Below are positions 9,981-63,376 of a stretch of DNA of 64,000 nt, piece after piece. The stretch is from a virus (Duplodnaviria > Caudoviricetes): the IMG/VR virus record IMGVR_UViG_3300035703_002708; one strand, given 5' to 3'. Made by a program: the position numbers and the translations under genes. Under the pieces are notes generated by a model, which worked only from the letters and a program-made list of their open reading frames with translations, did no database searches and was not told the DNA's origin. The number at the start of each line of letters is the position of its first letter. Position 1 is the stretch's first letter.

Positions 9981-11075
9981 ATGAAACTTTTGGATATATT
10001 GAAAGAAAGTGTTGCGAATGACCCTATTTTTGAAAAGTGGTCAGAAAAGTATAAGAAAAGTATTAATTGTAAAAATCCAAAAGGGTTCTCACAGCGTGCT
10101 CATTGTCAAGGAAGAAAGAAAAAATTACAAGAGGATGAAGAAACATCAGACGCAGAAAAAATCAATTATGTTAATGATTACTCTTTCGATAAATTACGTA
10201 AAACAGATAAATACACAACATTCATGGGTTTAGATAAGGAGTATAACCCAGACCCCAATAAAGAAATAACTCTGACTCATGGTGAAGACATATACAAATT
10301 CAGTCCTAAGGATTTGAATTTGAGTTTTTATGATAAAAAAAATGTTTTCACCCCAAATCAAAAAGTAAAAAACAGAGGGGAAAAACCGACTTTCGACTCA
10401 AGAAATTTCAAACAAGCACTTCAAACAATTTTTCCAGGAAATTGGCATTCAGATAATCAAGAATTTACACCTGGTCTGAGAGGTATTCATCCTTTTGACG
10501 AAGACGACGATTGGTCAATTTTGAATTTTTTTGATACGAACCCTCACAGGATGAGAGAATTGAATATATTATTTACCGCATCTGATGACACAGACCCGAT
10601 TCTGTGGTTAAAAAAATTTCTTAACGATAACGAAAATCCTGCGTTGAGAAATATGTTAAGAAAACAAAAAAATGCTGTAGGTCGTTCAGACAAGGTTGAA
10701 AAAGACGCAATGTCTTTGATTACCAATAACATTCAAACATTCCCAAAAGGACATAAGAAAGATAGGTACGATGCTATTGATGCAATTGACTTAAATACAA
10801 ATCTTACTTATCAAATCAAAGCGACACAAAGTGTAGAAGAAATGGTTGATGAAGATACTGCAGAAATTATTTATGTTATCAAAGGAGATAAAAGTAGATT
10901 CAAAGATTATAAGAATAAAAAAGAATTAAATAAAATATTGTACTACATACCCAAAAAAAATAAGGCTTATGTATTCGATAATGATAATTACAAAGTTATT
11001 TCTAACGATGAAGTAATACATTATGGTGTTCCTACAGAATATACAAAAAAACCTTCTGATTTGAAAAAAAAATAA
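9981..11075 (+). CDS. hypothetical protein with LKE leader and Cys-pair micro-domain
   Basis: True start is probably ATG 9981 (MKLLDILKES) after TATTTAT 9958-9964; contains EKWSEKYKKSINCKNPKGFSQRAHCQGRKKK. Confidence 0.75.
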   Translation: MKLLDILKESVANDPIFEKWSEKYKKSINCKNPKGFSQRAHCQGRKKKLQEDEETSDAEKINYVNDYSFDKLRKTDKYTTFMGLDKEYNPDPNKEITLTHGEDIYKFSPKDLNLSFYDKKNVFTPNQKVKNRGEKPTFDSRNFKQALQTIFPGNWHSDNQEFTPGLRGIHPFDEDDDWSILNFFDTNPHRMRELNILFTASDDTDPILWLKKFLNDNENPALRNMLRKQKNAVGRSDKVEKDAMSLITNNIQTFPKGHKKDRYDAIDAIDLNTNLTYQIKATQSVEEMVDEDTAEIIYVIKGDKSRFKDYKNKKELNKILYYIPKKNKAYVFDNDNYKVISNDEVIHYGVPTEYTKKPSDLKKK

Positions 11076-11123
11076 TTTCCTATGTCACAAATATTATCTA
11101 AATTTGTGACATAACAAAAATAT

Positions 11124-11351
11124 ATGTCATTACTCGAAGATTTCGCCGATTTAAGAAGCAGAATGAACCAAGAAGGTTTCCATTACTGTTTTAAACATTA
11201 TTCAAGTTTCTCAGATATAGATGACCAAGAGTTTCATAAATTACGAAAAGCGTATTTATCTGCAGCAGACAAACTCGAAAAATATATCGTTGACAAAGCC
11301 GAACAATTTTATTTAGGTGGAGATGTAGAATTTGACGACGAACAATTTTAA
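11124..11351 (+). CDS. hypothetical protein
   Basis: 75-aa ORF after TAAATTTG 11099-11106. Confidence 0.65.
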   Translation: MSLLEDFADLRSRMNQEGFHYCFKHYSSFSDIDDQEFHKLRKAYLSAADKLEKYIVDKAEQFYLGGDVEFDDEQF

Positions 11352-11419
11352 CAATCTCTTAACACATATTTCACATTTTATCAATTTACTTTTTTTGTTG
11401 AACCTCCTAAATTTGGGTC

Positions 11420-11734
11420 GTGTTAAAAAAACTATTAATTTTTTGTCTATTTTTACTATCTGCAACAGGGTTTTCACAAATTTGGAAACCTATAAAAAAC
11501 TCAATTCAGGCAGATTACTTAATTTATCAAACTAATATTAAAGAAGAAGCGGACATAATCGCTTTCGAGGTCGAATCAGAACTTGGATGTACGAAACCTG
11601 GTATGATTTACCTCGCGCCAATTTATTACTCAAGAGGTAAAAAAGTAACATTCGTTTGTCACAAAGAAGAGGCAGACCTAATAGTATATTGGACAAAAAA
11701 TAAAAACGAAGTCAAATGGAAAATAAACAAATAA
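11420..11734 (+). CDS. secreted protein, DUF6150-like repeats
   Basis: Signal peptide (LLIFCLFLLSATGFS-Q); repeated ADxxxY/EADLIVY units; TAAATTTG 11408-11415 upstream. Confidence 0.6.
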   Translation: MLKKLLIFCLFLLSATGFSQIWKPIKNSIQADYLIYQTNIKEEADIIAFEVESELGCTKPGMIYLAPIYYSRGKKVTFVCHKEEADLIVYWTKNKNEVKWKINK

Positions 11735-11744
11735 CCAATTAAAT

Positions 11745-19680: not shown

Positions 19681-20136
19681 ATGAACCTGAAGGAATCAAT
19701 TAAGAGAATACTGAAAGAGGAAAATAATATCCTCAAGTTAAGTTCATATTTGGAAGTAGAGCCTTTTTATAAATTACCATATAAGTATAAAAAATCATTA
19801 ATGATATTCAGAAATGAAGGTGTAGTAAATGATGAAGATATAAAGGAATTAATTACTGATGAATTAAAAACTAAGTTTAAATATAAATCATTTTATATTG
19901 GGGACGTTCCGATGGATTTAATAAAAGAAGAGGTCACCAAAAGATTGGATTGGGATAATTTTGAGGATTACCATAAATGGTATGGCGACAAAAAAACAGA
20001 CCACGGTGACTCCATACTTCCAATAATTATAGATTTTGATGACGAGGAATTTATTATAGATGGTTGGCACAGATTTCATTCGTATGTCAGAAAAGGATTA
20101 AATAAAATACCTGTTTTAGGAATATACAGAGATTAA
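19681..20136 (+). CDS. ParB/Srx N-terminal-like domain protein with LKESIKRILKEE leader
   Basis: PIIID...IIDGWHRFHSY...KIPV; ATG 19681 follows TATTTAT 19670-19676. Confidence 0.75.
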   Translation: MNLKESIKRILKEENNILKLSSYLEVEPFYKLPYKYKKSLMIFRNEGVVNDEDIKELITDELKTKFKYKSFYIGDVPMDLIKEEVTKRLDWDNFEDYHKWYGDKKTDHGDSILPIIIDFDDEEFIIDGWHRFHSYVRKGLNKIPVLGIYRD

Positions 20137-20140: not shown

Positions 20141-23100
20141 ATGAACCTAAAAGAATCCATAAAAAGAATATTAAAAGAAACCCGTGAAGAAAAGGTTAAG
20201 AACTTTATCTATTCAAAATTCGATAAAGTATTTGACGAATTGAATTTAGAGGTTGATTATGAGGAAAATAATTATGTTTATGGTAAATGGTCTGACAAAA
20301 ATAAACGAGAAGTATTCCACAGAAATGATTGGGGTTCTTTTTGGATTATCGAGTGCGAACCATACAGGACATTATACAGATATTCCAAATCCGTTGGTTT
20401 AGATTATGAAGAATTTGAAAAAATGCTTATTGACTATTTGAATGATAAATACAAAGAACAATTCCTTAACAAAAAATTCAAAAGTGTTGGGGATGAACTC
20501 TATTGTTTAGAAGATGAATCAATATGGAACTAAAAGAAGATAAACATTACGACTTCCTTTTTTTGGATTACAAATTCACAAAGGGTTTGGAGTTTGTAAT
20601 CAACAGGTTAATGAAAAGAAAGTTTGATTGGTTTAATTCATTCAAATTAAATTCGGTAATGGTCAATTCGATGAGTCCTTGGGAAGGAATACATGTATTT
20701 TATTTGGGAGTATTGAATGTTGATGAAAATTGGGGAGAGAAAATGTGGATTGAGGAAGGACAATATGGTAAATTTCCTGGTAATAGAGAATATGATTTTG
20801 ACAAATATAGTGGTGTATTACTTAACGAACTTGTAGGTTCAAGAATAATGTCAGAGATTTCTGAAGTGTTTAACTTTGCTTTCAGAGGAGTAAGACCAAT
20901 TGAAGATACACCGAGAGTGTCAAGAGTTGGAAGATTATTATTACATTTTGATAAAAGTAAAAAAGAAGATAATTTACAAGAAACAATCAAACGAGTATTG
21001 AAACAACAAACAGAACTAAAAGAAAGATGTTGGCCTGGTTATACTCAAAAAGGTATGAAAACTATGTTCGGTAAAAGATATCCTAACTGCGTAAAAAAGA
21101 AAAAGAAATGACACTCAGACAAACCATAAAAAAAGTCCTCAAAGAAAGCACCCGTGATGAGTTCATAGAAAAACTCAAAATCAAGCGAAAAGATTTGGGT
21201 TTGGTTAAAATGAGAAAACTTCTCGGAGGTTTCGATGAGTATATTAAGTTATTACACGACGGAGATTACGAGGACTTCTTCCAAAAAGAAATTAGAGATA
21301 AGTTTGATGATTATTTATCATTTTTAGTTAATAATTATTATGGACATCCTTGTGAATACGAAAACGAACATCAAATGATTGAAGTTATAAAATATGCCAT
21401 TATAGAGAGAATGTATTATGATTACTTTGGTGATTTAGATGATAACGGTAAAGAATGGAGAGAGATGTTTAATGTTATGGACGACCATATATATGGCAGT
21501 TGGGGCGAAAAACTCTCAGAGTATTACAATTTAAGATGCGGACATTATAAATGATGAGTAGTACAAGAAATGAATTAGATAAATCTGTCGTAAAAAAAAT
21601 GGAACTTGTATTAAACAGGTACCTGAAAAGATATGATTGGTTCAAAAAAATTGAACTTGAAACCATAGGTTACAGTCCATCTGAAAAGGTAAGTCATTTC
21701 GCACCTGTCGGAACAATATATGTTGATGGGGATTGGTTATATGAAAGATGGAGAGAATATCATTACGAAGGACCATTTCCTGATTTATATGATGAAGAAT
21801 TGGGGGTAAGTTTGGGTGATTTTATCGGTGGAGATTTATCAGAAAAATTAAGAGGTGAATTCATTACGACTTTTGTTGCCGTAACTGGCTATCTAAGACC
21901 AAAATACATTAGTTGGAGTTGGTTAAAAGTCAGAACAAAAGACGATGAAACACAAAATTTGAGAGAGTCAATCAGAAGAGTTTTGAAAGAGAATACACAA
22001 AGAGTTAGAATAGAAAAATTGATTGATAAAGTTGGTTTCGAAAACGCTTGTAAATCAGTTGGAGGTATTCAACAAATAGCGAAAATAATGGATGTTAGAC
22101 CAATTGAATTATTAGAAAAGTATTTCATCGGTAACAAGTTATCAACTCAAGATATAGACAAAGATGTTCCTGTTGGTGGATATGATTTTGATTTCAAACC
22201 AACCGCTATTTCAGAAAATTATATGGAGGGAATTTATATTGATTATACAATAACAAAAGGAACAATACATTTAATTTATGGTACTGGTGAAACATTTGAT
22301 TTATTTGACCCCTCTTTAAGAAAAAAAGAATATTGGTGGGAAATAGAATATGAATTACAAGATATTTTCAGAGATTATTCTATGATTTATTTGAGGAGAT
22401 TAAATTATAATATGGATGATGATACTGCGATATTTATTGAAGTTAATTTTGATGACAAGGCATGAAACTGAGACAGACCATAAAAAAAGTATTAAGGGAA
22501 TCAATTGAACTTGACCATTCAATCAGAAGAAGATTGAATGTAAATCAACAAGAAATGATTGACAGATATAAAAAAGAAGTCTTAAGAAATTTCAAATACG
22601 AAAAAGATTTGAAATTAATTATAGATAAATCATCGAGAGACGCTGCATTTGAAATCTTGGATTACATCGAAGCATGGCGTGATTTACCACAAGCAAAGGC
22701 TATGGATGAACTTTTAATTTTGAGTAAATACCTTTATAAGAATTATGGAGATATGATGATGGATTTTATTAGAAACACATTTGACGAAAATCATAAAGGT
22801 TTTGATGACTTTACATATGTGTTTCACAAACACTCAAACAGAAATGGTACAGGAAATGGATTTTCAGATGGATACCAAACTTGGTTCGAACTCCTCAAAG
22901 ATAAGGCAAGTTGGTTTTCCGATTTGAATTGGAATGAAATTAAATCTAAGTTAGACAAACAAAATGGACCTGCAAGTGTGCTCATCAAAAGTCCTGGCGA
23001 TGAAGGAAATATGTATAACTATTATTTCAGTATAAGAAAAGAACCAAGAAGATGAACCTACAAGAATCCATAAGAAGAATATTAAGGGAGGAAACTCGTT

Positions 23101-24527
23101 TTAACAAAATGGGGGAAGAAAGATATAAATCTTGTTCTATGTCAGATATTACTAGAATGGAAATAATAGATAATTTTCTAAAAAAAGTGGAAACAAACTC
23201 AAAGTATAATGAGGAAGAACCAAACTATGATATGTTACTTGATGATTGGGATGGGTATGATGACCAAGTTTATATTCAAAATCAATTAGACAAAGGGAAA
23301 ATTATATTCTATGAAGGGTGGGTTGATTCTTGTTGGTCTGCCGTATATAAAAAACCACAATATAAAGGGATGGATGAAGAAGAAGTTATTGATAATATAA
23401 TAACAAAAAGATTCCCAAGAATTGCCGAAGAGTTTAATATGACAATTGATGATTATGGGTATTTTAATAATGGTGATGGATATATAATGTATATAGTATT
23501 TAAAAGAATCTAATATGAACCTCAGAAACACCATAAAAAAAGTATTAGTTCAAGAAAGTAGAGCGCTTGAAACAATCAAGAACTATGTTGAAAAATATGG
23601 TTTATTGAGAACTTCTGAAATATTAGGATTATCTTTAACAGAAATTGTCAAAATAACAAATCATCCGATTAATACCGAGTTAGCCAACGAGTTGATTGTT
23701 GAAAACTTCAAAAATGGTAATTTAGACAGAACTTATAAAGAGTTCAAACTATCACTTGAATATGGTGATGTAATAGGTTGGTTTGGACAATTTGATAACG
23801 GACCTTTCGGAAATTATGTTGAGCAGTATTTTATTTACGCAACACCATATTACGATTATAAACAACAAATACCAGTAGATGTTTCTTGGTGTGATTTATT
23901 GAATCAAGATGATGGTAGTGTGAAAAGTATTGAAGGGGAGGGTAATTACTTTTTTAGTATAAATGTCCAAGATAATTTCAAATCGGTGGAACATTTATTT
24001 GATTGGTATAATAACTTTTATCTTCCTTTAACCTACGATGTAATAATGACTAAATTAGTTCCTGAAGTGAGAGATGACTTAGAATGGAAATACTTTGGTA
24101 AAAAATTCTAAATATGACAAAACAAGAAAAATTAAGAGATAAGTTAAGATTAATGACCAAAACAATTGGTGTGATTCAGATGATGAAATCAATTGGTCTC
24201 AAAGATTTATTAGAAAAAACTGAAGGTTTTGATTTCCTTACAGAAGAAGAGCTCGCAAAATCAATCCAAGAATGTGTTGATATTACAGGACCGATGCAAT
24301 ATAACGAATTGGGTATTCAACCAATATTGTGGAGAGAAACAAGAGATGAAATACACCAATTAGAATATTTCTCGGGAACAAGAGCGGTGGTCCAAGTATG
24401 GGAAGGATATAATTACGATACTGATGGAGGAGAATATCAAGTTTTTTATCATAGTATGAACAAAGACCAACTAATGTTAATTTTGTATGGTTTTTTAGAT
24501 TTTATAGAAACCGAAATGACTTTGTAA
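20141..24527 (+). CDS. tandem array of 8 mosaic hypothetical proteins (20141, 20524, 21108, 21551, 22462, 23052, 23515, 24114) sharing leader and other modules
   Basis: Coupled ORFs; most begin with or contain LxE(S/T)I(K/R)(K/R)(I/V)L(K/R)E. Confidence 0.8.
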
Positions 24528-30214: not shown

Positions 30215-30302
30215 GGTCAGATGGCGGAATTGGATAGACGCTACCCTATATTTGGGGGAGAGGTGAAAGAAACTCATACAGGTTCGAGACCTGTTCTGAC
30301 CA
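30215..30302 (+). ncRNA. tRNA-like RNA 2 (class II frame, degenerate anticodon arm)
   Basis: GGTCAGA/TCTGACC+A; GCGGAATTGGATAGACGC; CCCT-ATATTTG-GGGG; variable arm GAG..CTC; ACAGG-TTCGAGA-CCTGT. Confidence 0.75.
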
Positions 30303-30312
30303 CTATAACGCT

Positions 30313-31295: not shown

Positions 31296-31712
31296 ATGAA
31301 ACAATTAAGAAAGTCCATCAAATCTATAATAAGACAATACCTGACCGAGAGTTACAATAATCCACACTTAATAGAAGTAAAACCAAATAAGTATGTTTAT
31401 CATACATCCAACCCTTTATTCAGAGATAAAATAGCAGAACAAGGATTAACACCGAAAGGTAAAAGTGAAAGTTGGTTAGAAGATACAAAAATAGAAGGAA
31501 AAGTAATATTTGCGGTTAACAGTAATGACAGAAATTATATGTGGGATTCAACTTATGATGATGATATATATAGAATCAATACAACTAAACTAAATAATAC
31601 TTGGTATAACGACCCCAATTTCGATGAAGACGGAATACATATCATTACATTCGAAAGTATACCAAGAAACGCAATCAAACTAATTTATAAAGGAACAGGG
31701 AAATGGTCGTAG
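31296..31712 (+). CDS. ADP-ribosyltransferase-fold-like protein with LTE leader
   Basis: YVYHTS....DKI..QGLTP strand-1 motif and VIFA strand, typical of small ART/KptA-like domains. Confidence 0.55.
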   Translation: MKQLRKSIKSIIRQYLTESYNNPHLIEVKPNKYVYHTSNPLFRDKIAEQGLTPKGKSESWLEDTKIEGKVIFAVNSNDRNYMWDSTYDDDIYRINTTKLNNTWYNDPNFDEDGIHIITFESIPRNAIKLIYKGTGKWS

Positions 31713-34039: not shown

Positions 34040-35576
34040 CCCCATATTCCCAAAAAAAATTCTGGAAAAAATTTCAGAAAAATCACTACATTTGTTTGAT
34101 AAAAATTATTTATTTTTGGAGTATAATCCCTATATTATATATATGGAAACAGAAAAAAAATGTAATAGATGTGGTTTGATTTTACCTGTTGATGAATTCT
34201 ATAAACGCAAAGATGGTAAGGTTAGAAACCCGTGTAAGAATTGTAAAAAAATTATTAATGCAATTTCAAATAAAAAATGGTCTCAAACTGATGAGGGGAA
34301 ATCAAAACAGAAATTATATAATAAGAAATATAAAATTAAGAAAAAGGAAGAAAATAGAATAATCAGGGAAGAAAAGAGACAAATAAAAATTAATGAACAA
34401 TTAGAAAAGAAACGTATTAAAGATTTAGTAAAACAGGAAAAACTACAACTCAAAATACAACTAAAAAATAAAAAAAAGGAAGAGTATATAAAAAAGTTAG
34501 AATATTATAAGAGTGATGAATACAAAGAATTAAAGAGGAAAAGAACTAATGCCAAAAACTATATCAGATGGAAGAAAAAATGGGAAACAAATACAACTTT
34601 TGCGATGAAAGTCAGATTGAGAAATTTAATTAGAAAATCTTTCATTAAAAGGGGATATTCCAAATCATCAAAAACTCAAGATATTTTGGGTATAGATTAC
34701 GAAGGTCTTGTTAAACATATAGAGAGTCAATTCAAAGACGGGATGACTTGGGAGAATAGAGGAGAATGGCACATAGACCACATAATTCCTCTTTCATCAG
34801 CAACATCTGAAGATGAACTCACAAAGTTATGTCATTATACCAATTTACAACCCTTATGGGAAAAAGATAACTTGGAAAAATCCAATAAGATACTTTAACA
34901 CCCCACTATTAAAAAAATTTTTGGAAAATTTCTGAGAATTTGTATCTTTGTCTTATGACCTTCAAAGAATCAGAAAAGTTTTTATTATCTCTTAATGTCG
35001 GTGAGGGATATAATGATGTTGTTGTAACCAAACGAACTGGTAAAAGAATATATCTCAACAACAAAAAGATTGTCCATATTAAAAATGGGGGAAACTTCTT
35101 ATATCTTGATGGTAAAAATATTAATCAGATTTTGAGAGATATTGAAGGGTATATGATTTATCTTATTCATCGGTAGATTTATTAATTTGGGGATATTTAT
35201 AACTAAAATTATATCATGAAAAAAGTTGTAAGATTAACTGAGTCAGAACTCGTTAGATTGGTTAAAAAAATTATTAATGAGTCTGAAATCAAAGACCAAT
35301 ATTATATTGTGGCATATCCCGACCATATTCGTGGTCGCGGGATGTTTATATACACAGGGGACGACGGATATAGCATGATACCAACTTCAATTGAGTTTAG
35401 AAGAAAAATGCATTTAGAAATGGATAATCCCCCAAAATCATATGACTCAAGGGAAGAGGCTATGAAGGATTTAAAGAAAGTAAAAAGAGGAACAAAAAAC
35501 AGACCTGACATTTCTTGGGAAGTTGTTAGGTTTTAAATAATACCCACACTATTAAAAAAAATTTTTTGGAAAATTT
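34040..35576 (+). repeat. three copies of a CCC-A-tract/T-tract motif (34040-34080, 34901-34931, 35543-35576)
   Basis: Copies 2 and 3 share CACTATTAAAAAAA(A)TTTTT(T)GGAAAATTT; each sits in an intergenic gap before a promoter motif. Confidence 0.65.
34143..34898 (+). CDS. HNH endonuclease with N-terminal Zn ribbon
   Basis: CNRC...CKNC; C-terminal WHIDHIIPLS...CHYTNLQPLW..DNLEKSNK; TACATTTG 34087-34094 upstream. Confidence 0.88.
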   Translation: METEKKCNRCGLILPVDEFYKRKDGKVRNPCKNCKKIINAISNKKWSQTDEGKSKQKLYNKKYKIKKKEENRIIREEKRQIKINEQLEKKRIKDLVKQEKLQLKIQLKNKKKEEYIKKLEYYKSDEYKELKRKRTNAKNYIRWKKKWETNTTFAMKVRLRNLIRKSFIKRGYSKSSKTQDILGIDYEGLVKHIESQFKDGMTWENRGEWHIDHIIPLSSATSEDELTKLCHYTNLQPLWEKDNLEKSNKIL

Positions 35577-35984
35577 GGGTATTTATCTTATATGAAAATA
35601 ATTTTATCTGAAAACCAAGTTGATAAAATACCAAGTGATAAATTGGAGAAAATATTTTTTGGATGGTTCAGCAGAAAATACCCCGACTATCATTTGAATG
35701 ATAAGGACATGATTGTTTCAAAATCAGATGACGGTCTTGAAAATATAATTCATTTTTATTTTGATGAAGATGATGATTTTTATGTGTCGATTTATTTGAT
35801 TGAATTATTCTTCAATAGAACAGGTATCAAAAGTTTTGACCATAGTTCAATTGTGAATAACCCAAGTCCGGCTAGAGCAAAATTCGATAATATAATGAGA
35901 ATTTTTGCAAAAGAAAATTTTGGAAGAAAGGTTTATAATGTTTATTTACATTTTTTGGATACAGTAGAAACTGATGGTTGGTAA
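34955..35984 (+). CDS. three hypothetical proteins (34955-35176; 35216-35536 with MKKVVRLTESEL leader; 35592-35984 with MKIILSENQ leader)
   Basis: TTTG-N19-TATCTTTG before the first; TATTTAT before the second and third. Confidence 0.7.
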
Positions 35985-36254: not shown

Positions 36255-36515
36255 ATGAAAAAAGTTATAAGATTAACCGAAAGAGATTTAACAAGAATCG
36301 TTAAACGTGTCGTAAACGAAATGGACGGGGATTCAGATTATGAATTTTCATTTGATATTAAGTCTGTTAGGTGTGATGACGAAACATTTAAAGATGGTCA
36401 TGTTGATATAAAAGGAGACACTATTGTAATTAGATACTGTAAGGGGGATGATGATAGTTTAGAGTATTTAAAAAGAAAAGGAAAAAAATTATTTCTTTCT
36501 CAACACGGAATGTAA
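36255..36515 (+). CDS. hypothetical protein with MKKVIRLTERDL leader
   Basis: ATG 36255 follows TATTTAT 36235-36241. Confidence 0.7.
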   Translation: MKKVIRLTERDLTRIVKRVVNEMDGDSDYEFSFDIKSVRCDDETFKDGHVDIKGDTIVIRYCKGDDDSLEYLKRKGKKLFLSQHGM

Positions 36516-36925: not shown

Positions 36926-37998
36926 ATGGAAAAAATCATATCTAAGATTGTTAAGTATATTCTTGAAAAGAAATACCCCGAGTTTACTGATGTCCGAGTA
37001 ACAAATGAGCATGATTATGAACGTTCTTTTGCGGATAAGAAAAAAAGTATAAAATACAATATTTTTTTGACAATTGATTATTCTGACTTTGAACCCATTC
37101 GTATTTCTGGTGATTGGGATATACTCAAATCAGAAATTAGAAATACTGTTCGAATGTCAGGAATTGATAATAGTGTTAATGTTTATCTTAATTTTTCTGA
37201 CGAGGAGTAATATTTATAAAATATGAAAATAATAATATCAGAATCAAAACTCATAAATTTATTTAAACAAAGATTTGGGGTCGACTTTTCAGGTCGTGTG
37301 AAAAAAATAACTGACCACAATGATTTACCTAACAAATTTAAATGGTTTACTAAAAAAATGTTTGATGCTTATTTGAATTTTACTCCCGGACAAATCACTC
37401 CTTTTTATCTGATTGAGGCCGATGGTAAACTATATTTATATCAAAATAAAAAGATTCCGAGAGATATGGAAGAAAATATGCAAAGTGAGGAAATGGTTGA
37501 TGAAAGGGGTCGCATAGTTAATGTTGAGAGTTTTAGGAAAAGTAATAACATACCAAACATTGGCATATCTCTCCCAGATTTTTTTGATATGTATATCGAC
37601 GAACCAAGTGATGATGTGTTTTAAGTTATATTTTGTTCAGGAGTGATATTTATGATTAAAATTATATTATGAGAAAATTTATTATAACTGAAGAAGAGAG
37701 AAAATATATAATGGGTTTATATGAACAAACAGGTAATCCAAACGAGTCACAAATGATTGACTATGTAAAAACTAAATGGGGTGCGGACACTGAAATAGAA
37801 CAAAACAGTGCATTCATAGAAATAATAAACAACAAAACTGGTAGTACTATAAAATTTGACACACAAAAAGACCAAATATACTACAACAAAAATTTCGCAA
37901 TTGACCCAAATCCGATTCCCATTAATTCTAACCTTAATACCTTTAAAAAATGGTTTGATAGCCACAATAATTATAATCCACTTTCAGGTGTTAAATAA
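36926..37998 (+). CDS. three hypothetical proteins (36926-37210, 37223-37624, 37669-37998)
   Basis: The last two carry ISES/ITEEE leaders and TATTTAT. Confidence 0.7.
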
Positions 37999-41312: not shown

Positions 41313-41996
41313 ATGAAAAAAGAAATTCTAAATGAAGAAGAGAAAAATCGTATTTTAGAAATGCACAAAACCGCAACAAAGAATTTATATTTGTTGAGGG
41401 AAACAGTAGAACAAGATTTATCTATTTCTTTAGATAGTTTATCAAAAACAAAAAAAGATTGGACCAATGATTTCTATTTATCATACGGAGGTGCTCCTAA
41501 TACAATTAGTTTAAATCCTAAGAAAAATGGTAAAGTCCAACTTGGTGCAAAATATCAAATTTCTTTACCTGGTTCTGCACAAATTGTGGGAATTACTCAA
41601 AATCAATTAACAGGAAATTGGCCTGCCCCACAAATAAATATTACTTTTGGTAATTTGGACAAATTGGTAAATTTCAATTTATTATTTGGATTCATAGAAT
41701 ACAAACCAGATGGTGTTATTATGCAATTTTATTCAAAAAATGCTAAAGGGTTTCTAACTCACGAACAATCTTATAAAGTTTGGGATGAGACAGATGGTAG
41801 GGATAATGTTGCAAAAAAATTGGGCTATAGTTCTATGAATGAGGTTCCAATAAGATTTACAGTCTCTATGAATGATTCTGCTGCTATTTTGGTTAAACTA
41901 AATAAATTAAAAAACACTGGTTGGAAATCTATGAAGGATGGTATTAACATACCAGGTATTTTAAATATCTCCGTGACGGCTACAAAAGTTGGTTAA
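41313..41996 (+). CDS. hypothetical protein with ILNEEEKNRILEMH leader
   Basis: TATTTAT 41288-41294. Confidence 0.7.
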   Translation: MKKEILNEEEKNRILEMHKTATKNLYLLRETVEQDLSISLDSLSKTKKDWTNDFYLSYGGAPNTISLNPKKNGKVQLGAKYQISLPGSAQIVGITQNQLTGNWPAPQINITFGNLDKLVNFNLLFGFIEYKPDGVIMQFYSKNAKGFLTHEQSYKVWDETDGRDNVAKKLGYSSMNEVPIRFTVSMNDSAAILVKLNKLKNTGWKSMKDGINIPGILNISVTATKVG

Positions 41997-42788: not shown

Positions 42789-43836
42789 ATGAAAAAAATT
42801 GTAAGATTAACAGAAAATGATTTAATACGTATAGTTAAACGAGTTATAAACGAACAAACTAGCGTCACAAATAACAGTATTATGATAAGTTGTGCTGAAG
42901 ATTTGTATAAAATTAATCCACCTGAAGACGACCCACAATCTACAGGAATACCTCTAATAGATATGATTGGGGAGGCCACTTTTTATTTTGATTCTAATGA
43001 TTGGGATGAAGAGGGTATAGTTAGAGCTTTAGAGGTTGGCAACCCTAATGAGTTAGAAAAATATCAAAACATATTAAGATGTAGTTTTAAAAAAATCGGT
43101 GGGCTCCCTTTACAAGAAAATAATCCATTGTTAACAATAGCAAGAAAAACATTCACAACGATGGGAATGACTGATTTCGGTGACAAAGAACTGAAGATGA
43201 GAGCTCAAAAAGCGTTATTTAGACTTGGAATCAAAATCAAAATATAATTTTGTAAAAGTTATAATACTTCATAATAAAAATCCAAACCACTAAAGGTGGG
43301 TTTTTTATTTTCGTAAATATTTATATGATATGAATATTATAATATCAGAATCTCAATTCAAAATGTTATGTGAACAACATGCGTTTGCAGCACAAGGAGT
43401 CCCTGATTGGTATAGAAAAAGTGTCGATGATTTTACGAAAACATATCCTAATCTTTCTAACTTAATTGGTGATTTAGCTTTGTGGATGGTACCTTATATA
43501 GGACCGTATTTGGTGTCCGCAAAAAATACAACAGAAGGAATACTTTTATACAAAAAAGGGAAAAAGGTCGAGGGAGTGATTTCCATATTGACCAGTCCTT
43601 TAGCCTTGATGAAAGTTGTAAAAATTTTGAAATATTTGGGCACGACAGGTAATGTAGTGGATATGTTAAATTTAATAAATAAATCGGGAATACCTATATT
43701 AGTTAATAAAGGACAAGAAGCTTTTCTGAATTGGGGTTGGAAACAATTTGGAAAAGATTTCAAGATATTTGTAGAATTTTTGAAAAACCAAAAACATATG
43801 AAACCTATTTTGGATGATATAGTTAAAAGTTTATAA
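42789..43836 (+). CDS. two leader-bearing hypothetical proteins (42789-43247, 43330-43836)
   Basis: MKKIVRLTENDL and MNIIISESQ starts, each after TATTTAT. Confidence 0.7.
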
Positions 43837-45112: not shown

Positions 45113-46749
45113 ATGGATATTAAGAAATTTTTGGTTACAGAATCCGAAAGAAAGGATATACTACTTCAGTACGGATTAATTAAAGAACAGGATGTGGTTA
45201 AGAAGTCTTTGGAATTAGATAAAAAGGTTGATTTTCCTGGCGGTTACTATAATCAAAAATACTTGGAGCCTATATTACAACCTGAAATAGAAAAAATAAA
45301 AACTTATCTATCGAATGGTGCTGGTAAAAGATTTTTGGTTACGGTTGAGATAACATCATCAGAATCACGTATACCAAATACAGATAACGAGGCCGGAGGT
45401 AAGAGAGTTGAGTCAGGTTATTTATCTCAAAAAAGAAATGAAACCATACAAAAATATATAACAGAACAATTACAAAGTTTTGTCGACGATAAACTTTTAG
45501 CAAGTTTACCATCATTTAAAGTTGCCAAACCTGAAATAAAGGGTCCTGAATGGAGAGGTCAACCCTTTTGTCCAGTAAATATGATTCCAAAAAACGACAA
45601 TCAGGGATATGAGTGTTTATCACCAAAATTCAATGCGGGACGCAATACCAATGGAAAACCTATCACAAATTGGGTCAATGGTAGAGGAAAAAGGGCAACC
45701 GATGGTACCTACGCCGGAGGATTATACTCTGATATTGCAAATGAATTCGTGGCCGCTCAAAGTATCACAGTAAAAATGATTTTGAAAGAATTACCTGACA
45801 TTAGTAAATGTTTAAACAACATGGTCATAGAGGTAAATTATACAAATTTGACAGAAAAACATAAATGTAATAATGCAACATATAATATATACATGACGGC
45901 AGGTAGTGCTACGGCACCCACAAATAGTGATTTATTATTCAGGACTGATGGAAAAAATTATGCTAGTTTAGATAATAATAATAGTAGTTATGATAATAAT
46001 CCTAATACTTGCGTTAACGCTAATAGTGAAAAATGTAAAAGGTATAATAAATTCATAATCTCACCTGAGATTGCAGAACGTATTTTGAAACAAGAAATAG
46101 ATAGTGGTAAAGAAACCGAAAAACCGACTTTCAAAATATGGGCCAGATGTATCGGTACCACCACACCACATCCTGAGTGGGGTACTGGTTGTCACAAATC
46201 AAAAAAAGACCCGAACTTCGGTGTAGGAGATGTAAAAATAACAAGCGGAACAAAAAATGTGAGTACTTTCGAAGTTAAAACACCATCCAAAAAAGACGAA
46301 ATTAAATTATTACAGACAATTTCTGCCTGTGGTACGGCACAATAAAAAATAAAAAAATTTAATAAATGAAAAAAATAGATTTAATTATTCAGAAAGTTTT
46401 GAGAGAAACAACTGAAGAAATGGAAGAGGGAATTTTCGACGACTTGAAAGATAAGTATAGAGGTCTAAAAGGTGTTAAGAGAGGGTATGGAATGGATTAC
46501 TTTGAGAACATGAGTAAACTACAAAGACTTGTTACCAAATTACAAAAGTTAGATGAACCAAATAGAGAAGTTATCAAAGAATTATCTATGTTGCAATCCA
46601 AAGTCCAAAGCCTAAACATGCCTCAACAAAGGAAAGATGCTCTTTTAACCCTTATTGATAGGTCAATTAAGTATTTCAATTATTATGACAGTGTCAATAC
46701 TCAGATTATAAAAAATATAGGTAATTTAAAGATTGATGATTGGTCTTAG
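45113..46749 (+). CDS. two hypothetical proteins (45113-46345, 410 aa, LVTESE..LIKEQ leader; 46366-46749, VLRE leader)
   Basis: TATTTAT 45093-45099; long intact ORFs. Confidence 0.7.
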
Positions 46750-49372: not shown

Positions 49373-51475
49373 ATGAAAACAAAATACTTTTTTGGATGGG
49401 ACAATATCAAGTGGGGTATCAAAGAACTCATCAACATTTACTCAAGTAAAACTTCTTACTTTTCTAAAAAACGAATCGAGTCAGGAATTGCATTTTTGAT
49501 TGCACAGTGGGGTATGGTTTATTTCTTACATCAACACCACGATAAATTAACTATGGGTGAATTTTTGTTGTGGGCGGCAGCCGAATTTGCAGTTTCAGGA
49601 TATATGATTAATCAAATCCAAAAAGAGAAAAAAGAAAAATTGGAGTCATCGTCTAACGAAAACAATTCTGATGTAATTTTATGAAAGTTTTAATTTCCGA
49701 ATCACAAGTAGAAAGACTCAAAAGTATTTACTCATCTTTGTATAATGTAAATGATTATGAAGGTGTTTGTCGTATAATGGTCGATTACGATGAGGAATTT
49801 AACAAAATTGTTTTAAATGTATTTTTTGATAGAAAGTTTGCAATAAAAAATGGTAGGTCCTTCAATAAAATAAAAAATTCTGTTATAGATAATATGGGGA
49901 CAAAAGCAAGAAATTGGATGAAAACAACTCCTTGGATATATTTACACTTTGAAAATTGTGATGAAACTAATAATTAACGAAAACCAAAAAGAAAAAGTCA
50001 ATAATTTGATTTATCAAACAATCGATGGTATGTTTGATATTGATGAAATGATACCTGTGGATAGAGAGGATTATGAACACGAACCAATCGAAGTCATTTC
50101 ACCTGATTATGACAAATTTTTTGTGGTTTATCTTCCTCAATATTGGTCGGACGAAACTAACGAAGGAATATATCAAAAAAAACGTTCTCCGATTTTACAA
50201 CTTGAAAGAGAGTATGAAGACAACCTGAATTCTAAATTTGGTTCATTATGGCACGACCAAATGATAAAGTGGGTAGAAGATAATTTTCCATTTTTACCAA
50301 AAATCAAATCAGTGGGATTTTAACTATGAGAAAAGAAGCGGCATCAAAATTAGAAAAGATACTTGAAAAACTTTTGACAAGTAAATTGAAAGAACTAAAT
50401 ACGCCTGAAAACTTTGATAGTGTTAAAATAGATATTTACCCATCTGAATATGGAATCAATTGTCATATTTCATATCTTATGAAAAAACCATTTTCAAGGG
50501 AAGACTCGGATTTTTTTAATTACCTTGGATTTCCTATATCTTTCATAAAAAGTGTTGCTGGAGATATCTTCAATGGAGGTATCCAATCAGGACAATCTAC
50601 TGTTGCACATTATAATGACAGAACAGGTGACTGGTATGAAATGCAAAAAGAACGTTTTGAATAGGATATTCTTTTAAATATTTTTTATTATATTTTCATC
50701 AAAACATATTATGACATATCAAGAAAAAGCGGTAAAATACGGTGAGTTGTTAAATTTACACACACGAATTCAAAATAAGATAGCCGAAATCAGAGGACAG
50801 GACATTGACCTCAACCAACAACAACTTTCTGAAATCAGAAAATACGAAAACCAACTTATCCAAATTACAAACGAGATTCAAAAGATTATGATATGAGTGA
50901 TTATAACTATAGAGTTATTGTTGATGTAGAATCATCCGAAGGTCGTTCCAACATTTCTATCGGTTATCCCAAAAACCAACCTCTGTTATCGGTAAAGGAC
51001 ACCTCACATATTTTGGCAGGGGCAATTTCTTTACTTATCAAAACCGCATCGAAAGGAGATAAGTATAAAGATTATGAACTAATACAAGAAGTTATTAATC
51101 ATCTCAACAGTGAGTTTATAGATACAGATTCATTTTCTGACGCTTATGTCAATCCTAAAATAGTTTAATTTATATTTATAACATATGAAAATTGTTATAA
51201 GTGAAAGTCAATCAGACAGAATGGTTGATATTATAAAGATGGTTGTGTCCACAATAGATTTCGAGGGTGGAGTCAAAGATTTTGAGGTATATCCCCCCGA
51301 TTATGAAGATGAGTTTCCAACTTATGATATTATGTTAAATCTAAATTACGATTGGATTCAAGAGAATGAATTTCATGCTCAACAATATCTGAGAAACGTA
51401 AGGGCTGGCGTTAAAGACAAAGTCAAAGAACTAACAGGATTGAAAAATATTTACGTAGGAACTACGATGAAATAA
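49373..51475 (+). CDS. run of small hypothetical proteins (49373-49684 2-TM; 49681, 49961, 50326, 50711, 50893, 51185)
   Basis: Coupled ORFs; three carry ISESQ/INENQ leaders. Confidence 0.7.
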
Positions 51476-52346: not shown

Positions 52347-53756
52347 ATGAAAAAGATTGTGAAACTAACTGAATCTGACCTACAAAGAATTATAGAAAAG
52401 GTTATAAGTGAAGAAAAAACGCCATCAGAAGAGAAAAAAAAATTGGCAATGAAACATTTAAGAAAAATTTCTGAGTATTTGAAAAATTATGATATCGAAA
52501 AGGAGGATTTTCCTGGTGCGGATATGACTTATCTAATCAATATGTTCGAGAAAATCGCTGACCACCAAGATATTAAGTTGTAATGACAAAAAAACAAGAG
52601 GCATTATTAAAAATTGTTGAAAGGTTCGGAGTTGAGAGGGCCGCCAAATCAACAGGTTTAAGTTTGTTTGAAATTTATAATGAACTTGATGGTCATTTGG
52701 AATTTACCCCTGAAATTTGTTTGGAACTTTTGGAAGATATGTTTAATAATACTTCGTTATTAAAACAAAGTGATGAAAATATTAGTTTAGAGTGGGGTGT
52801 TTTTACCGATGGTATTTGTACTTGGTATTATATCAATAGAAAGACTGGAGAAAAACTAACAGTTGCCGCAACCCCATTTTGGGATGGAGAACCTAATGTC
52901 CCTGTAAATTTAGAAGATTATGTTGTTGATAAATTTGACCCGAATACAAAAGAATGGACTATTGTATACCAAGAATATGCTGATATGTATGATACATTAG
53001 AATATGAAGATGTACCTGAAAAATTTGAAAGATTAAGTCATCTAATAAATTGGTTTAACGAAGTTTATTTTGAAGATGTCAAAGAGATTATATATGACGG
53101 ATTAAAATACCTAAGAAATAACGCAAAAAGAAAAGGAGTATGATATCTGAAAATATGACACAATTTCTGTATAGGTATCTTGATACTATATTTCATAAAT
53201 CTCAATTCAATAAAGAGGAGTTTGAAGATGAAAATGTTTATGAAATATTTTCTGAAGAATTCCATATTTCAATAGTGAAACTTACAACTAGAATAAGAGT
53301 TAGTGCAGATTTATTCCATAAAATGCATGGATTGTTTGGTGTAAGTTACGGTGATTTGGGAGATGTTATTAGAGATTACCTCTCTATGAAATTAGATTAC
53401 GATTTTACTTATTACCCTACTATACCATCCTAATGAAAATAATACTAACCGATAATAAATTAGAAAAAATAATGTTAAGGTATATCCAAGACATTATGAA
53501 AGTGGATTTAGAACCAACCGTTGATGGTGATAATCTCTACTATAGAGATAGTAATGGTGATATATTCCTAAAAGTTGATATGACGTTTCCACGGTCAATA
53601 GATGTTTTACTTTCCTATGACTTCTATATCAAAATGTTTAGATATTTCAAAGCAGACCCAACTGAATATCACAGATTACTCAAATCAGTTATAGAAAAAA
53701 TAACAAAATTAGAAGTTAAAGAAATTATACCATCTTTGATGGGTTATGAAGATTAA
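52347..53756 (+). CDS. four hypothetical proteins (52347 LTESDL leader; 52583, paralog of 23515; 53140; 53433)
   Basis: TATTTAT 52323-52329; 52583 shares GLSLxEI, ATP(Y/F)xD and LxxW(Y/F)N with 23515. Confidence 0.7.
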
Positions 53757-54565
53757 CTCAAAAGTTTGTAAAAGGTTTTGAACTCTTTAAGTCTATGGTC
53801 AAGACCTATCGTACCACCATTTACTCTTTTAGTAACAGATGTAACAACCTCATCAGTCGCACCTCTATCACAAATCGACCAAAGGTTATTATTATTAAAG
53901 AAAAATGCCGCTGAGGCTAGTGGATATTTTGTTGCCACTAAATCAGGATTAGCAACACAATCTTCACCTATAAACTTAGTGAAAGTTTTATAATTGTCTT
54001 TTCCTGTGAGCTGGATATAGCCCCTCCCTCGAAACTTATACCCTTCTTTTGATGCCTCATCACCATTACCCATTCTTCCACCATATACTTTTGACGCAAT
54101 CTTCTCAGGTTGTTTAGCATATGACTCGGCTAAGTTGCCAGGGAAATATTTACCAAATATTTTTTTCAGTCCATCAACTGAATAATTCAAATTTTCACTT
54201 GTTACTTTAAATCCACCACTTTCGTGAGAACACTGAGCCAAAAAGTGAGCCAATCTTAAATTGTTTGTTATATTAAATTTTGATGCGGTTTCAGAAATCT
54301 GAACCAATACTGAGTCAGGAATATGACCTTTTAATTTATCAATATTTAATCCTGTTACAGGTTGAATTACCACATCTTCTTTTAATATTATACCAAGTTT
54401 TGATAATGTCGTAGGACCAGCAACTCCATCAGCGGTTAGACCATTTTTTGTTTGCCATTCTTTTAATGCCTTTTCAGTTTTGGGACCGAAATCACCGTCA
54501 GCAACTAAACCTAATTTTTCTTGTAACAATTTAACTTCGTTACTTTTCATTCCAAGTTTTAACAT
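53753..54565 (-). CDS. endolysin: peptidoglycan-binding domain plus glycoside hydrolase family 19
   Basis: ADGDFGPKT..WQ..GLTADGVAGPTT; LAHFLAQCSHESGGF..ENLNYS; FRGRGYIQLTGKDNY; TKRVNGGTIGL. Confidence 0.93.
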   Translation of the reverse strand: MLKLGMKSNEVKLLQEKLGLVADGDFGPKTEKALKEWQTKNGLTADGVAGPTTLSKLGIILKEDVVIQPVTGLNIDKLKGHIPDSVLVQISETASKFNITNNLRLAHFLAQCSHESGGFKVTSENLNYSVDGLKKIFGKYFPGNLAESYAKQPEKIASKVYGGRMGNGDEASKEGYKFRGRGYIQLTGKDNYKTFTKFIGEDCVANPDLVATKYPLASAAFFFNNNNLWSICDRGATDEVVTSVTKRVNGGTIGLDHRLKEFKTFYKLLS

Positions 54566-56395: not shown

Positions 56396-56406
56396 CCTAA
56401 CCTAAA

Positions 56407-59144: not shown

Positions 59145-59452
59145 AATCTTTCTTTTTTTGCTTGGAAAAATTCAAAATCCCACCCTGACCCGTATTTCCA
59201 AACGTCTAAACTAAAGTACGATTCAACCTTTTCAATAATTTCCTTTTTCAGTGTCTTCAAATCGTACCAATTCTTTTGACTTTTCAAATTATTAATTGTA
59301 ACAATAATTCTAATGACCTCTATTGTTCTTTCTTCTTCAGGAAGTTCAGGGGATGAACCCAAATAAGAATTAACTTTCTCAAAATCAACATCCATAACTT
59401 CAGGAAAAGACCTTAAAATAACTTGTTCAATAAGTGGAACTAATTTATGCAT
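59141..59452 (-). CDS. hypothetical protein (dispersed paralog family)
   Basis: LIEQVILRSFPEVMDV resembles 30954 and 36926. Confidence 0.65.
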   Translation of the reverse strand: MHKLVPLIEQVILRSFPEVMDVDFEKVNSYLGSSPELPEEERTIEVIRIIVTINNLKSQKNWYDLKTLKKEIIEKVESYFSLDVWKYGSGWDFEFFQAKKERF

Positions 59453-61256: not shown

Positions 61257-61319
61257 ATTTCTAATTTTTAAGAAACATACTAATAAATTTATTCATTATC
61301 AACCCCTATGTGAATATTA

Positions 61320-61778
61320 TTATAACCATTCAGGTTTATAACCTGTTTTCCACACCAAAATATCTTTCTTTGCATTCCTATAATAGTTTCTGTAAGATTC
61401 AACTACATCATCCACTTTGTATTCATCAGGCATCGCTTTCGGTTGAGGAGTCAATCCGATATCAGGAATATTTGGTCGATTTACCAAACACCAATCTAAT
61501 ATGGCTTTACTCTTATGAATTTTACCATATCGGTTTTGATACTCGTTACACAAAGCAAATCCCAAATCTGTTAACCAAACATAATTAGAATACGACTCAC
61601 GAGCCCAAATAGCACAAGGGTGGTTTTTGTGACTTAATAAGTAAGGTGCTTCACCACCTGTTGCCCAATGAACACCACATAAAAGTTGGGCGGTTTCCAA
61701 TATCATTTTAACACAATGTTTGTCACAGTGGTCTTTTGCACACTTCTCGATGTCGGTATCTAATACGAAAATATTCAT
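61320..61778 (-). CDS. pyrimidine dimer DNA glycosylase / endonuclease V-like
   Basis: MNIF.LD....CA..HCDKH.VKMILETAQLL, SHKNHPCAIW, YRYG-like RYGKIHKS, AMPDEYK; TACATTTG 61783-61790 upstream. Confidence 0.75.
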   Translation of the reverse strand: MNIFVLDTDIEKCAKDHCDKHCVKMILETAQLLCGVHWATGGEAPYLLSHKNHPCAIWARESYSNYVWLTDLGFALCNEYQNRYGKIHKSKAILDWCLVNRPNIPDIGLTPQPKAMPDEYKVDDVVESYRNYYRNAKKDILVWKTGYKPEWL

Positions 61779-61864
61779 AGCACAAATGTAAGTTTTCTTT
61801 TGTTAACAAACAAGAAAATCGGTCAAAATCTCAAATTATATCAAAAATTTTGATATTTATAGGT

Positions 61865-62749
61865 ATGAGAACTCTACTTACCCTAATTTTAGTATTTACT
61901 TTTTCGGTATTTGGTTTAGCACAACACAGCCAATTATCGAACATTCAAATGCTATCAAGTAGTCCCATGACTTCTATGTGCGACTCAACGATAGGGCCAA
62001 TGTACCAAAGTGCCACACCTATACCCACATATGGGTATTTGGAGACAAACGGTTATTGCTACTTTTTACCTCAACCTCAAATTACATTCACACTATGTTT
62101 CCATTTTGTGGCGATATCAAGTGGTGTATATTTGAATTCCGGATTTACTGCTTTGGGGTGCTCCACAGTAACATTCAGTTCATTACAACTTTGTGATAAA
62201 ACAGATGGTGTAATTGTAGGTCAAGGACAATTTTTTAATAACTTAATAGTTGGACACGAATATGTTTGGTGTGTTGTTGGAAACACATCAGGTTTGTTCT
62301 GTCAAGGATTGACTACTATTTGTCCTTATTGGACTGAAGCGTCTTTATTACCCGTAGAATTGACATTATTTACCGCAACTCCTACAAATAACGGAATTCT
62401 TCTTCGTTGGACTACTATGAGCGAATCAAATTCTGATTATTTTATTTTGGAAAGGTCAAAAGATTTATATACCTTTACCGAAGTTACAAGAATGAAGTCA
62501 TCGGTGTATAGTAATGCAAAAATTGACTATGAATTTTTGGATAGAGTACCTTATGATGGGGTTTCTTATTACAGATTAGTTCAAGTTGATTTGAATGGTG
62601 CAAGGAAAATATATGACCCAATATTCGCAAACATAACTTTCAAAAAACCTGTTAAAGTTTTAGATGTTTTGGGAAATAGAGTTGATATGAATTACAACGG
62701 AATGAAGATTTTAATTTTTGAAGACGGGAGTGCTGTAAAGTACTATTAA
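61865..62749 (+). CDS. secreted protein with LPVEL beta-domain and short T9SS-like tail
   Basis: Signal peptide; LLPVELTLF..WTT.SE.NSDYF.LERS..YYRLVQVDLNG; KVLDVLGNRV...IFEDGS. Confidence 0.75.
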   Translation: MRTLLTLILVFTFSVFGLAQHSQLSNIQMLSSSPMTSMCDSTIGPMYQSATPIPTYGYLETNGYCYFLPQPQITFTLCFHFVAISSGVYLNSGFTALGCSTVTFSSLQLCDKTDGVIVGQGQFFNNLIVGHEYVWCVVGNTSGLFCQGLTTICPYWTEASLLPVELTLFTATPTNNGILLRWTTMSESNSDYFILERSKDLYTFTEVTRMKSSVYSNAKIDYEFLDRVPYDGVSYYRLVQVDLNGARKIYDPIFANITFKKPVKVLDVLGNRVDMNYNGMKILIFEDGSAVKYY

Positions 62750-62762
62750 CATATTTATCTGT

Positions 62763-63376
62763 ATGAGATTTATAATTACAGAAGCAGAAAAAGAGGACAT
62801 TTTATCAAAATATAAAGATAATACCGACGACAGATTACTAACATATCTTCGTAGGAATTATCCTGTTTCAACCGTAAAGTTTCCCAAATACAATCCTGAA
62901 ACTTTAGATTATGATGATATCCCAACTCCTATGATTTCTGTGGATTATAAGTCATATTTTGTTGAGGACAATAAAAAGTTGTTGGTTAATAAAATTTTTA
63001 ATACTTTAGAGGACAATTTTACAGATATTTCTGATGATGTCAAAAGAAGGACAATTAAGAAGTATTTGGACATGATTAATTTAACTGACTTCTAATGGAA
63101 AATATTGGTAAAATCCAAAAATTGATGGACATAGTTGAGAAAAAATATCTTTCAAAGATGTTTGAAAACCCTATTGAGTTTGAGGTAGGTGAAATCAAAG
63201 TCATCAAAGGAAAACACTATGTTATTGATATTCTCATTCCTTCTTTTTATCTCAAAAATGAACCATACCAGCCAAAACTTAACGAGTGGTGGGATAAATT
63301 ATTGAAAGTTCAGGAGTTTTACCACCACATGAATGAGGAGGGCTCAGTTAATTTTCAACCCATAGAAAAAAAATAG
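62763..63376 (+). CDS. two hypothetical proteins (62763-63095 with IITEAE leader; 63095-63376)
   Basis: TATTTAT 62752-62758. Confidence 0.7.

Follow-up and report, generated by a model that had tools for sequence, protein, structure and literature searches.

In bacteriophage T4, IPI, IPII and IPIII, which are internal proteins, and the Alt protein carry a capsid-targeting sequence (CTS) that is removed by gp21, the prohead protease (Mullaney and Black 1996; reviews: PMC9026906, PMC5694885). The internal-protein propeptides, of 10–19 residues, target these proteins to the prohead core (PMC9026906, PMC5694885), and gp21, which itself carries the site LIE-9, cuts after L/I-x-E, often at a Glu-Ala bond (PMC9026906). 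In the phages phiKZ, 201phi2-1 and SPN3US, propeptides of head and ejection proteins are cut by gp21-like proteases after (S/A/G)-x-E (PMC5694885, PMC7411985, PMC10052503). Here we analysed a family of short N-terminal leader peptides encoded on a 64-kb stretch of tailed-phage DNA (Caudoviricetes; IMG/VR record IMGVR_UViG_3300035703_002708), the whole of which is called the window. The leaders had been noticed in an original prediction made from the letters of the window, which read them as capsid-targeting signals cleaved by a gp21-type protease.

The T4 CTS and the leaders of the window are both short N-terminal peptides on otherwise unrelated, non-essential proteins, and both end with L/I-x-E. 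Both occur together with a gp21-family protease and a T4-type head module (seen here in relatives of the window) and with a cargo set that varies between related phages, and the genes, late in T4, are putatively late here. T4 packages Alt, an ADP-ribosyltransferase (ART) that gp21 cuts, and one cargo of the window is ART-like by fold prediction. However, one leader class (type a) is longer, with 22 residues, and far more conserved than the T4 CTS, and there are four classes instead of one. Tagged genes number 24 of 123 in the window and 33 or more in the complete related genome G001, compared with five in T4. Targeting and cleavage are established for the T4 CTS, whereas here they are inferred from sequence. 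The phiKZ-like systems resemble the window in belonging to jumbo phages, in having propeptides that are thought to target the prohead, and in having several cleavage sites per propeptide; giant phages have many internal head proteins, and the SPN3US paralogues gp53 and gp54 share conserved N-termini. Their propeptides, however, are mostly 100 or more residues long, are family-specific and use another cleavage motif, and no short tag is common to many unrelated proteins. The feature described here would be a variant of the T4 capsid-targeting principle, one that resembles the T4 CTS by analogy, with no claim of common descent.

All 24 of the N-termini listed in the original prediction were present as described, so that about a fifth of the genes of the window (24/123) are tagged. 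The leaders begin at Met1, are 7–22 residues long and fall into four classes (a to d). Two further type-b motifs are internal, at residue 151 of 20524–21111 and residue 137 of 21551–22465. The leader genes and internal motifs are as follows.

35216..35536, + strand: type-a leader gene, 106 aa; MKKVVRLTESELVRLVKKIINE then S; TATTTAT box 15 nt upstream
36255..36515, + strand: type-a leader gene, 86 aa; MKKVIRLTERDLTRIVKRVVNE then M
42789..43247, + strand: type-a leader gene, 152 aa, query of the database search; MKKIVRLTENDLIRIVKRVINE then Q
52347..52583, + strand: type-a leader gene, 78 aa; MKKIVKLTESDLQRIIEKVISE then E
19681..20136, + strand: type-b leader gene; MNLKESIKRILKE then E; cargo end with a ParB/sulfiredoxin-like DGWHR motif (by eye)
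20141..20533, + strand: type-b leader gene; same leader peptide as 19681
20974..21006, + strand: internal type-b motif LQETIKRVLKQ within 20524–21111; then mini-cargo CWPGYTQKGMKTMFGKRYPNCV
21108..21554, + strand: type-b leader gene; MTLRQTIKKVLKE then S
21959..21991, + strand: internal type-b motif LRESIRRVLKE within 21551–22465, at a domain junction
22462..23055, + strand: type-b leader gene; MKLRQTIKKVLRE then S
23052..23513, + strand: type-b leader gene; MNLQESIRRILRE then E
23515..24111, + strand: type-b leader gene; MNLRNTIKKVLVQ; cargo paralogous to the leaderless 52583–53143
31296..31712, + strand: loose type-b leader on a cargo with a predicted ART fold (Tpt1/KptA-like); MKQLRKSIKSIIRQYLTE then S
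46366..46749, + strand: loose type-b leader; MKKIDLIIQKVLRE then T
9981..11075, + strand: short leader MKLLDILKE then S on a 364-aa protein; the G001 homologue has a type-c-like leader instead
35592..35984, + strand: type-c leader gene; MKIILSENQ
37223..37624, + strand: type-c leader gene; MKIIISESK
43330..43836, + strand: type-c leader gene; MNIIISESQ
49681..49977, + strand: type-c leader gene; MKVLISESQ
49961..50323, + strand: type-c leader gene; MKLIINENQ; cargo aligns with the cargo of type-b gene 20141
51185..51475, + strand: type-c leader gene; MKIVISESQ
53433..53756, + strand: type-c leader gene, weakest member; MKIILTDNK
37669..37998, + strand: type-d leader gene; MRKFIITEEERKYIM
41313..41996, + strand: type-d leader gene; MKKEILNEEEKNRILEMH
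45113..46345, + strand: type-d leader gene, 410 aa; MDIKKFLVTESERKDIL; G001 homologue also type-d
62763..63095, + strand: type-d leader gene; MRFIITEAEKEDIL

The 78-aa product of 52347 is almost the leader alone, and its gene overlaps by one base (the A of TAA/ATG) with 52583–53143. For 36255 and 9981, a TATTTAT box lies 13–16 nt upstream of the starts chosen in the original prediction, which fit better than the starts of the longer open reading frames (ORFs).

Regular expressions for types a, b, c and d, which were defined after inspection of the data, gave 4, 8, 7 and 4 matches in the 123 called proteins, compared with 0.00–0.09 expected from shuffled sequences. The same four classes were found independently of the window in G001 (15 leaders of type a, 6 of type b, 8 of type c and 4 of type d), so that the enrichment recurs despite the post hoc patterns. 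Furthermore, the core [ILVM]-x-[KRQN]-[ILVM]-[ILVM]-x-E was about 12-fold more common in the first 25 residues of proteins than elsewhere; the window and an independent relative with a complete genome both show this. We conclude that the leaders are genuine and do not arise by chance.

The original prediction had also stated that the leader DNA differs at synonymous sites and that the peptide is what is conserved, and both statements were borne out. The identical 13-aa leaders of 19681 and 20141 differed in 7 of 13 codons. In a set of 54 non-redundant type-a leaders drawn from many contigs, conserved residues had a codon identity of 0.59 (0.51 expected from codon usage), and uniformity was clearly above expectation only at codons 2–6 (AAA AAA, and AGA at 100%). 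The codon data indicate that the leaders are held by selection on the peptide, not on the DNA. The 22-residue type-a consensus was MKKIIRLTESDLxRIVKRVINE. Entropy in the 54 leaders was 0 bits at positions 1, 7, 9 and 22, rose to 2.35 bits at position 23 and reached background (3.2–4.0 bits) from position 24. The invariant residues M1, L7, E9, L12 and E22 include two L/I-x-E triplets. Conservation in type b likewise stops at ...[IV][LI]xE(E).

Type a reads as a beta-strand-like segment, MKKIIRL, followed by an amphipathic helix, TESDLxRIVKRVINE, and types a, c and d all have a hydrophobic strand and then a [ST]-E-x-[DEQ] capping box. The hydrophobic moment of the leaders was 1.86, compared with 0.88 in shuffles, and Lys, Arg, Glu and Asp occur throughout. 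Sec, Tat and lipoprotein signal peptides were ruled out, as the leaders are charged and amphipathic and lack the core of at least 10 hydrophobic residues that follows a basic N-region in such peptides; the true signal peptides that the window does encode, for example those of 39909 and 61865, look unlike them. A ribbon-helix-helix domain, of which type a resembles the strand and helix A, was likewise rejected: entropy is at background from residue 24, where such a domain (about 45 aa) would go on to a conserved turn and helix B, and a Pfam scan of the tagged proteins gave no ribbon-helix-helix match.

A word-seeded search with residues 1–40 of the 42789 protein returned 133 metagenomic proteins that shared a near-identical MKKIVRLTE[NS]DLxRIVKRVIxE and then diverged fully. 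When a profile of 45 leaders was compared with 1.84 billion representatives of clusters at 50% identity, 8,970 proteins were matched at E ≤ 1e-3 and 1,131 at E ≤ 1e-10. Among the 150 best-scoring proteins, the motif was N-terminal in 135 of its 151 copies (about 90%), while 6 lay within 25 residues behind miscalled starts, and 10 were internal; 9 of the 10 internal copies had no Met directly before them. At least 52 viral contigs in IMG/VR carry the tag, and DNA runs that contain part of the region came from about 11 freshwater studies. Among the sequencing runs listed for the region none is clearly RNA, and two marked as possible RNA are probably DNA. Cellular genomes almost lack the tag: a set of 185,579 prokaryotic species, each represented by a single genome, gave only 8 matches, all of them in metagenome-assembled genomes or bins and mostly on contigs of 1–7 kb. 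Neither a tagged protein nor the bare leader had a tblastn match among 50,697 cultured-phage records, and 12 kb of the window had no megablast match in the same set. No leader family was found in Pfam and PHROGs scans of the tagged proteins, and no description of the leader motif was found in the literature that was searched. The leaders thus belong to a clade-wide family of portable N-terminal tags that is far larger than one window.

The claim that the domains behind the leaders are unrelated held for type a, in which BLASTP likeness was confined to residues 1 to 22 or 29 and the cargos range from 56 to about 480 aa (56–500 aa for tagged cargos overall). It did not hold throughout types b and c, since all-against-all BLASTP showed several of these proteins to be weak paralogues over more of their length. 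Judged from the leader–cargo combinations, cargos pass from one tag class to another and from genome to genome. Such a leader swap is seen in the G001 homologue of 9981, and a small Cys-rich cargo of about 25 aa (CWxGYxQKGMKTMxGKRYPNCV), which stands behind the internal type-b motif of 20524–21111 (20974–21111), was found behind type-a leaders in two other phages (L007 and L050).

The ART-like assignment of the 31296 cargo was supported by its fold. An alignment-based AlphaFold model had a pLDDT of 85, with a separate N-terminal helix at residues 2–20 (the single-sequence model, with a pLDDT of 33, was useless). Its best structural matches were Tpt1/KptA and then other ADP-ribosyltransferase-fold proteins (Foldseek E 6e-4, TM 0.48), and leads from PHROGs and the Atlas agreed with this fold. 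The cargo is therefore predicted to have an ADP-ribosyltransferase-superfamily fold. Homologues that were 65–75% identical over the domain had varied N-terminal extensions (MKDLKQFIKTTIREFLNE, MRYIKLYE, MKHIKLFESFINE, or nearly none), most of which end with [FIL][LI]xE a few residues before the domain.

Other functional labels fared less well. The ParB-like label goes back to the 19681 cargo; its end reads ...IIDGWHRFHSY..., in which a ParB/sulfiredoxin-like DGxHR motif can be recognised by eye, but the label had no hidden Markov model (HMM) support. A transglycosylase label among the cargos could not be verified. Almost no cargo family was found in Pfam and PHROGs scans of the tagged proteins, and Atlas look-ups for 45113 and 9981 gave low-score leads only and no function.

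Two motifs occur upstream of genes in the window: the Bacteroidota-type TAnnTTTG and a phage-specific TATTTAT located 4–24 nt before start codons. Of the 24 tagged genes, 17 had a TATTTAT-type box within 60 nt upstream, as did 19 of the remaining 99 genes (odds ratio 10, p = 2.6e-6); the tagged genes without a box sit in arrays downstream of a boxed gene. Equal frequency of the leader on early genes with host promoters had been named in advance as an observation that would speak against capsid targeting; it was not seen, as the host-type TAnnTTTG box preceded 1 of the 24 tagged genes compared with 16 of the 99 others. In G001, TATTTAT precedes the terminase, the protease, the gene in the scaffold position and several tail-region genes, and in the window it precedes the endolysin, which marks the box as late-type there:

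53753..54565, − strand: GH19 / peptidoglycan-binding endolysin, with a TATTTAT box upstream as for tagged genes

TATTTAT is best read as a late promoter, on the evidence of the genes that it precedes. Untagged genes with the late box also exist (the lysin, secreted proteins with signal peptides, and a kinase), so that tagging is not a feature of late messages in general.

The head genes were studied in relatives, namely 14 tag-carrying viral records and, for gene order, G001. Peptidase_S77, the family of T4 gp21, scored above the curated cut-off in 10 of the 14, among them the two complete genomes, of 304 and 321 kb; the S77-negative remainder are four fragments that are 22–48% complete. Completeness estimates of all 14 imply genomes of about 300 kb, and a protein of the window is also encoded on a contig of 316,559 bp. 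The head module of G001 comprises Terminase_6N (the T4-type large terminase), Portal_T4 (gp20), a 238-aa protein, the S77 protease (135771–136499) and the Gp23 capsid protein, and an acidic protein of 466 aa occupies the scaffold position. Apart from promoter and leader stretches (75–90% identity), G001 and the window have almost no DNA in common, and G001 has homologues of 3 of the 24 window cargos and of 20 of the 99 other window proteins.

In the portions of Chen et al. 2022 (PMC9723584) covered here, freshwater Bacteroidetes phages encoding bS21 are described as having genomes of up to about 330 kb, predicted Bacteroidetes hosts, and a bS21 gene that runs on the other strand, flanked by the genes for the portal and the prohead protease. 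G001 has the same arrangement (135003–135188 on the − strand, corresponding to L063:15003–15188) and shares the freshwater origin and the 300-kb scale. Because bS21 lies on the opposite strand between its portal and protease genes, the tag-carrying relatives and the bS21 phages (PMC9723584) probably belong to the same clade. No mention of the tag was found in those portions of the report.

Head-module proteins of ten relatives show [ILV]xE-type endings like those of the leaders. A conserved 432-aa protein adjoining the capsid gene has type-b-like leaders of varied length and sequence (MLNDIIKKILRE, MISKIKNIVKQILKE, MDRKINE and MIDDKRIKEIIRE), which in 6 of 7 genomes run into the same ATS or ATG start with the endings [IV][IL]xE/ATS or INE/ATS (the slash marks the junction). 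GIL[IV]E lies close to the N-terminus of the protease, as LIE-9 does in T4 gp21, and the capsid protein has an invariant LINE/A near residue 60. The N-terminus of the G001 capsid protein could not be aligned to T4 gp23, similarity beginning at residue 293. The T4 gp23 propeptide is lost at a Glu-Ala bond whose position matches LINE/A, and LINE/A is a putative capsid cleavage site by its position and conservation.

Wherever the data allowed a test, the features needed for capsid targeting and gp21-type cleavage were found: the S77 protease and T4-type head genes in relatives, the late-type box, the ending of types a and b at [ILV]-x-E, endings of this kind in head-module proteins, and the exchange of cargos. 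Targeting of the tagged proteins to the prohead, with removal of the leaders by a gp21-type protease, is the best-supported reading, and we consider its chance of being correct to be about even. The leader would bind to the assembling prohead core late in infection, and the cargo would be enclosed by the shell. The S77 (T4 gp21-type) prohead protease would then cut after the [ILV]-x-E at the end of the leader and free the cargo inside the head. Type a would be cut at E22 and perhaps also at the invariant L7-T8-E9, and the internal motif copies would split two-domain precursors in the same manner. A part of the cargo, for example the 31296 protein with its predicted ART fold, would probably be ejected into the next host with the DNA, as are T4 Alt and the internal proteins. 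By this analogy, delivery of cargo into the host is possible, at a confidence that falls short of even. The joint claim of a four-class addressing code that loads dozens of exchangeable cargos per genome into the capsid for delivery to the next host, with thousands of cargo families across the clade, is also tentative and rated a little under an even chance. That the leaders are portable N-terminal propeptides of a clade of T4-like jumbo phages of about 300 kb from freshwater Bacteroidota is a statement that we hold with evenly divided confidence.

Several observations weigh against capsid targeting. The T4 CTS, MKTYQEFIAE, has a Met-Lys start and an I-x-E end in common with the tags, but is not alignable with them by eye. 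Types c and d fit less well than a and b: they stay conserved for 2–10 residues beyond the first [ILV]xE (...SE(N/S)Q...L in c and ITEEEKxRILxxH in d), and the pattern suggests that their Ser/Thr-Glu may be a helix cap, with the real cut, if any, further on. The residue after the presumed cut is mostly Gln (62% for the final Glu of type a, counted over the 150 best proteins); T4 sites, in contrast, are as a rule Glu-Ala. Furthermore, [IL]xE is frequent in the proteome of the window (1.4 per 100 aa), and thus the tripeptide by itself means little. The cargos are mostly acidic, with a median isoelectric point of 5.3 that does not set them apart from the other window proteins, whereas T4 internal proteins are basic. 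A share of 8–20% of genes would make an unusually large packaged set, and packaging, cleavage and injection of the tagged proteins are proposed by comparison, for an uncultured clade.

Some of these points would suit a leader that is never cleaved and acts as a strand-helix handle for docking or oligomerisation in the infected cell, bringing diverse late proteins to the assembly factory, the membrane, the nucleoid, the ribosome or a phage hub protein while the cargo stays outside the capsid. Amphipathicity, conservation as a protein sequence and the structural look of the strand with the [ST]-E-x-[DEQ] capping box in types a, c and d all fit such a handle, as do the conservation of c and d past the Glu, the Gln instead of Ala after it and the acidic cargos. 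However, it leaves unexplained why conservation in a and b stops exactly at [ILV]xE, and also the tie to S77-encoding T4-like phages; moreover, head-module orthologues keep only the xE/ATS junction while the length of the leader varies. We regard such a handle as unlikely.

Less probable again is a recognition peptide for another phage machine, which could be a chaperone, a modifying enzyme or an activating protease outside the prohead; the leader would then be comparable to those of modified peptides or to zymogen propeptides. A conserved leader in front of hypervariable sequence is the pattern of leader-guided modification systems, but the cargos are folded domains of 56–500 aa with different folds and not short core peptides, no modifying-enzyme gene is consistently adjacent in the window, and the junction fits the specificity of the head protease family. 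A similarly low probability is given to common descent, by which fast-evolving paralogous families would retain an N-terminal helix as merely their most constrained part, with no addressing role. The weak whole-length paralogy of several type-b and type-c proteins, which stand in tandem arrays as they do in relatives (9 copies in L027), would be expected from such descent. Type-a cargos, on the other hand, share nothing after residues 22–29 and differ in size from 56 to about 480 aa; one cargo family has several leaders, one mini-cargo stands behind both a and b leaders, and 8,970 clusters at 50% identity share the tag. Finally, it is very improbable that the element is a DNA cassette of late promoter and first codons, kept by gene conversion for shuffling accessory genes and serving as a recombination joint or translation-initiation region with an incidental peptide: promoter and leader are the only stretches of the region that match G001 DNA, codons 2–6 are more uniform than expected, and metagenome contigs frequently share this stretch alone before diverging (with short, unreliable flanks), but synonymous sites are near saturation over codons 7–22, identical peptides use different codons, and internal copies with neither promoter nor start codon keep the peptide, so that the codon data largely refute a cassette as the sole explanation, and it may only contribute to cargo exchange.

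The G+C content of the window is 31%, and its roughly 123 ORFs are mostly small and nearly all on the + strand. Recognisable genes encode thymidylate synthase, a UvrC-like nuclease, a class II aminoacyl-tRNA synthetase-like protein and a DUF932 protein. A 1,225-aa protein (11745–15422, +) has an N-terminal signal-like segment and a C-terminal Por_Secre_tail sorting domain of type IX secretion (E 3.7e-8), and by these domains it would be a phage-encoded cargo of the type IX secretion system. Downstream of a late-type TATTTAT box lies a gene for a membrane GAF-PAS-HATPase histidine kinase (54635–56841, +); the next ORF, of 144 aa, has the look of a receiver domain by eye, and the two may form a phage two-component pair. 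Among the leader genes, 38056–39201 (−, 381 aa) weakly matched the N-terminal domain of GmrSD (DUF262-type), at an E of 1e-4 that does not reach the curated cut-off. Outside the four leader classes, a family of small proteins has the common start ...I.K.IL.KYP...DV.V (30954–31262, −; 36926–37210, +; 59141–59452, −). ARAGORN called two odd tRNA-like genes, at 30215–30303 (+) and 33268–33338 (−), with the anticodon ATT for one and no determined anticodon for the other.

Whatever its function, a tag found on about 9,000 protein clusters, with no Pfam or PHROGs match for the scanned tagged proteins, deserves a family description. If capsid targeting and delivery are true, the tag would allow injected phage effectors of uncultured viruses to be recognised from sequence alone and would also be a portable packaging signal, and a defined tag of 22 residues would be available for trials of loading foreign proteins into large capsids. 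A profile search would then list the proteins that abundant uncultured jumbo phages carry into their hosts; these would likely be counter-defence and host-takeover factors, which are otherwise indistinguishable among hypothetical proteins. It would also mean that capsid targeting on the T4 principle is able to expand from five proteins to a repertoire that is large and exchangeable.

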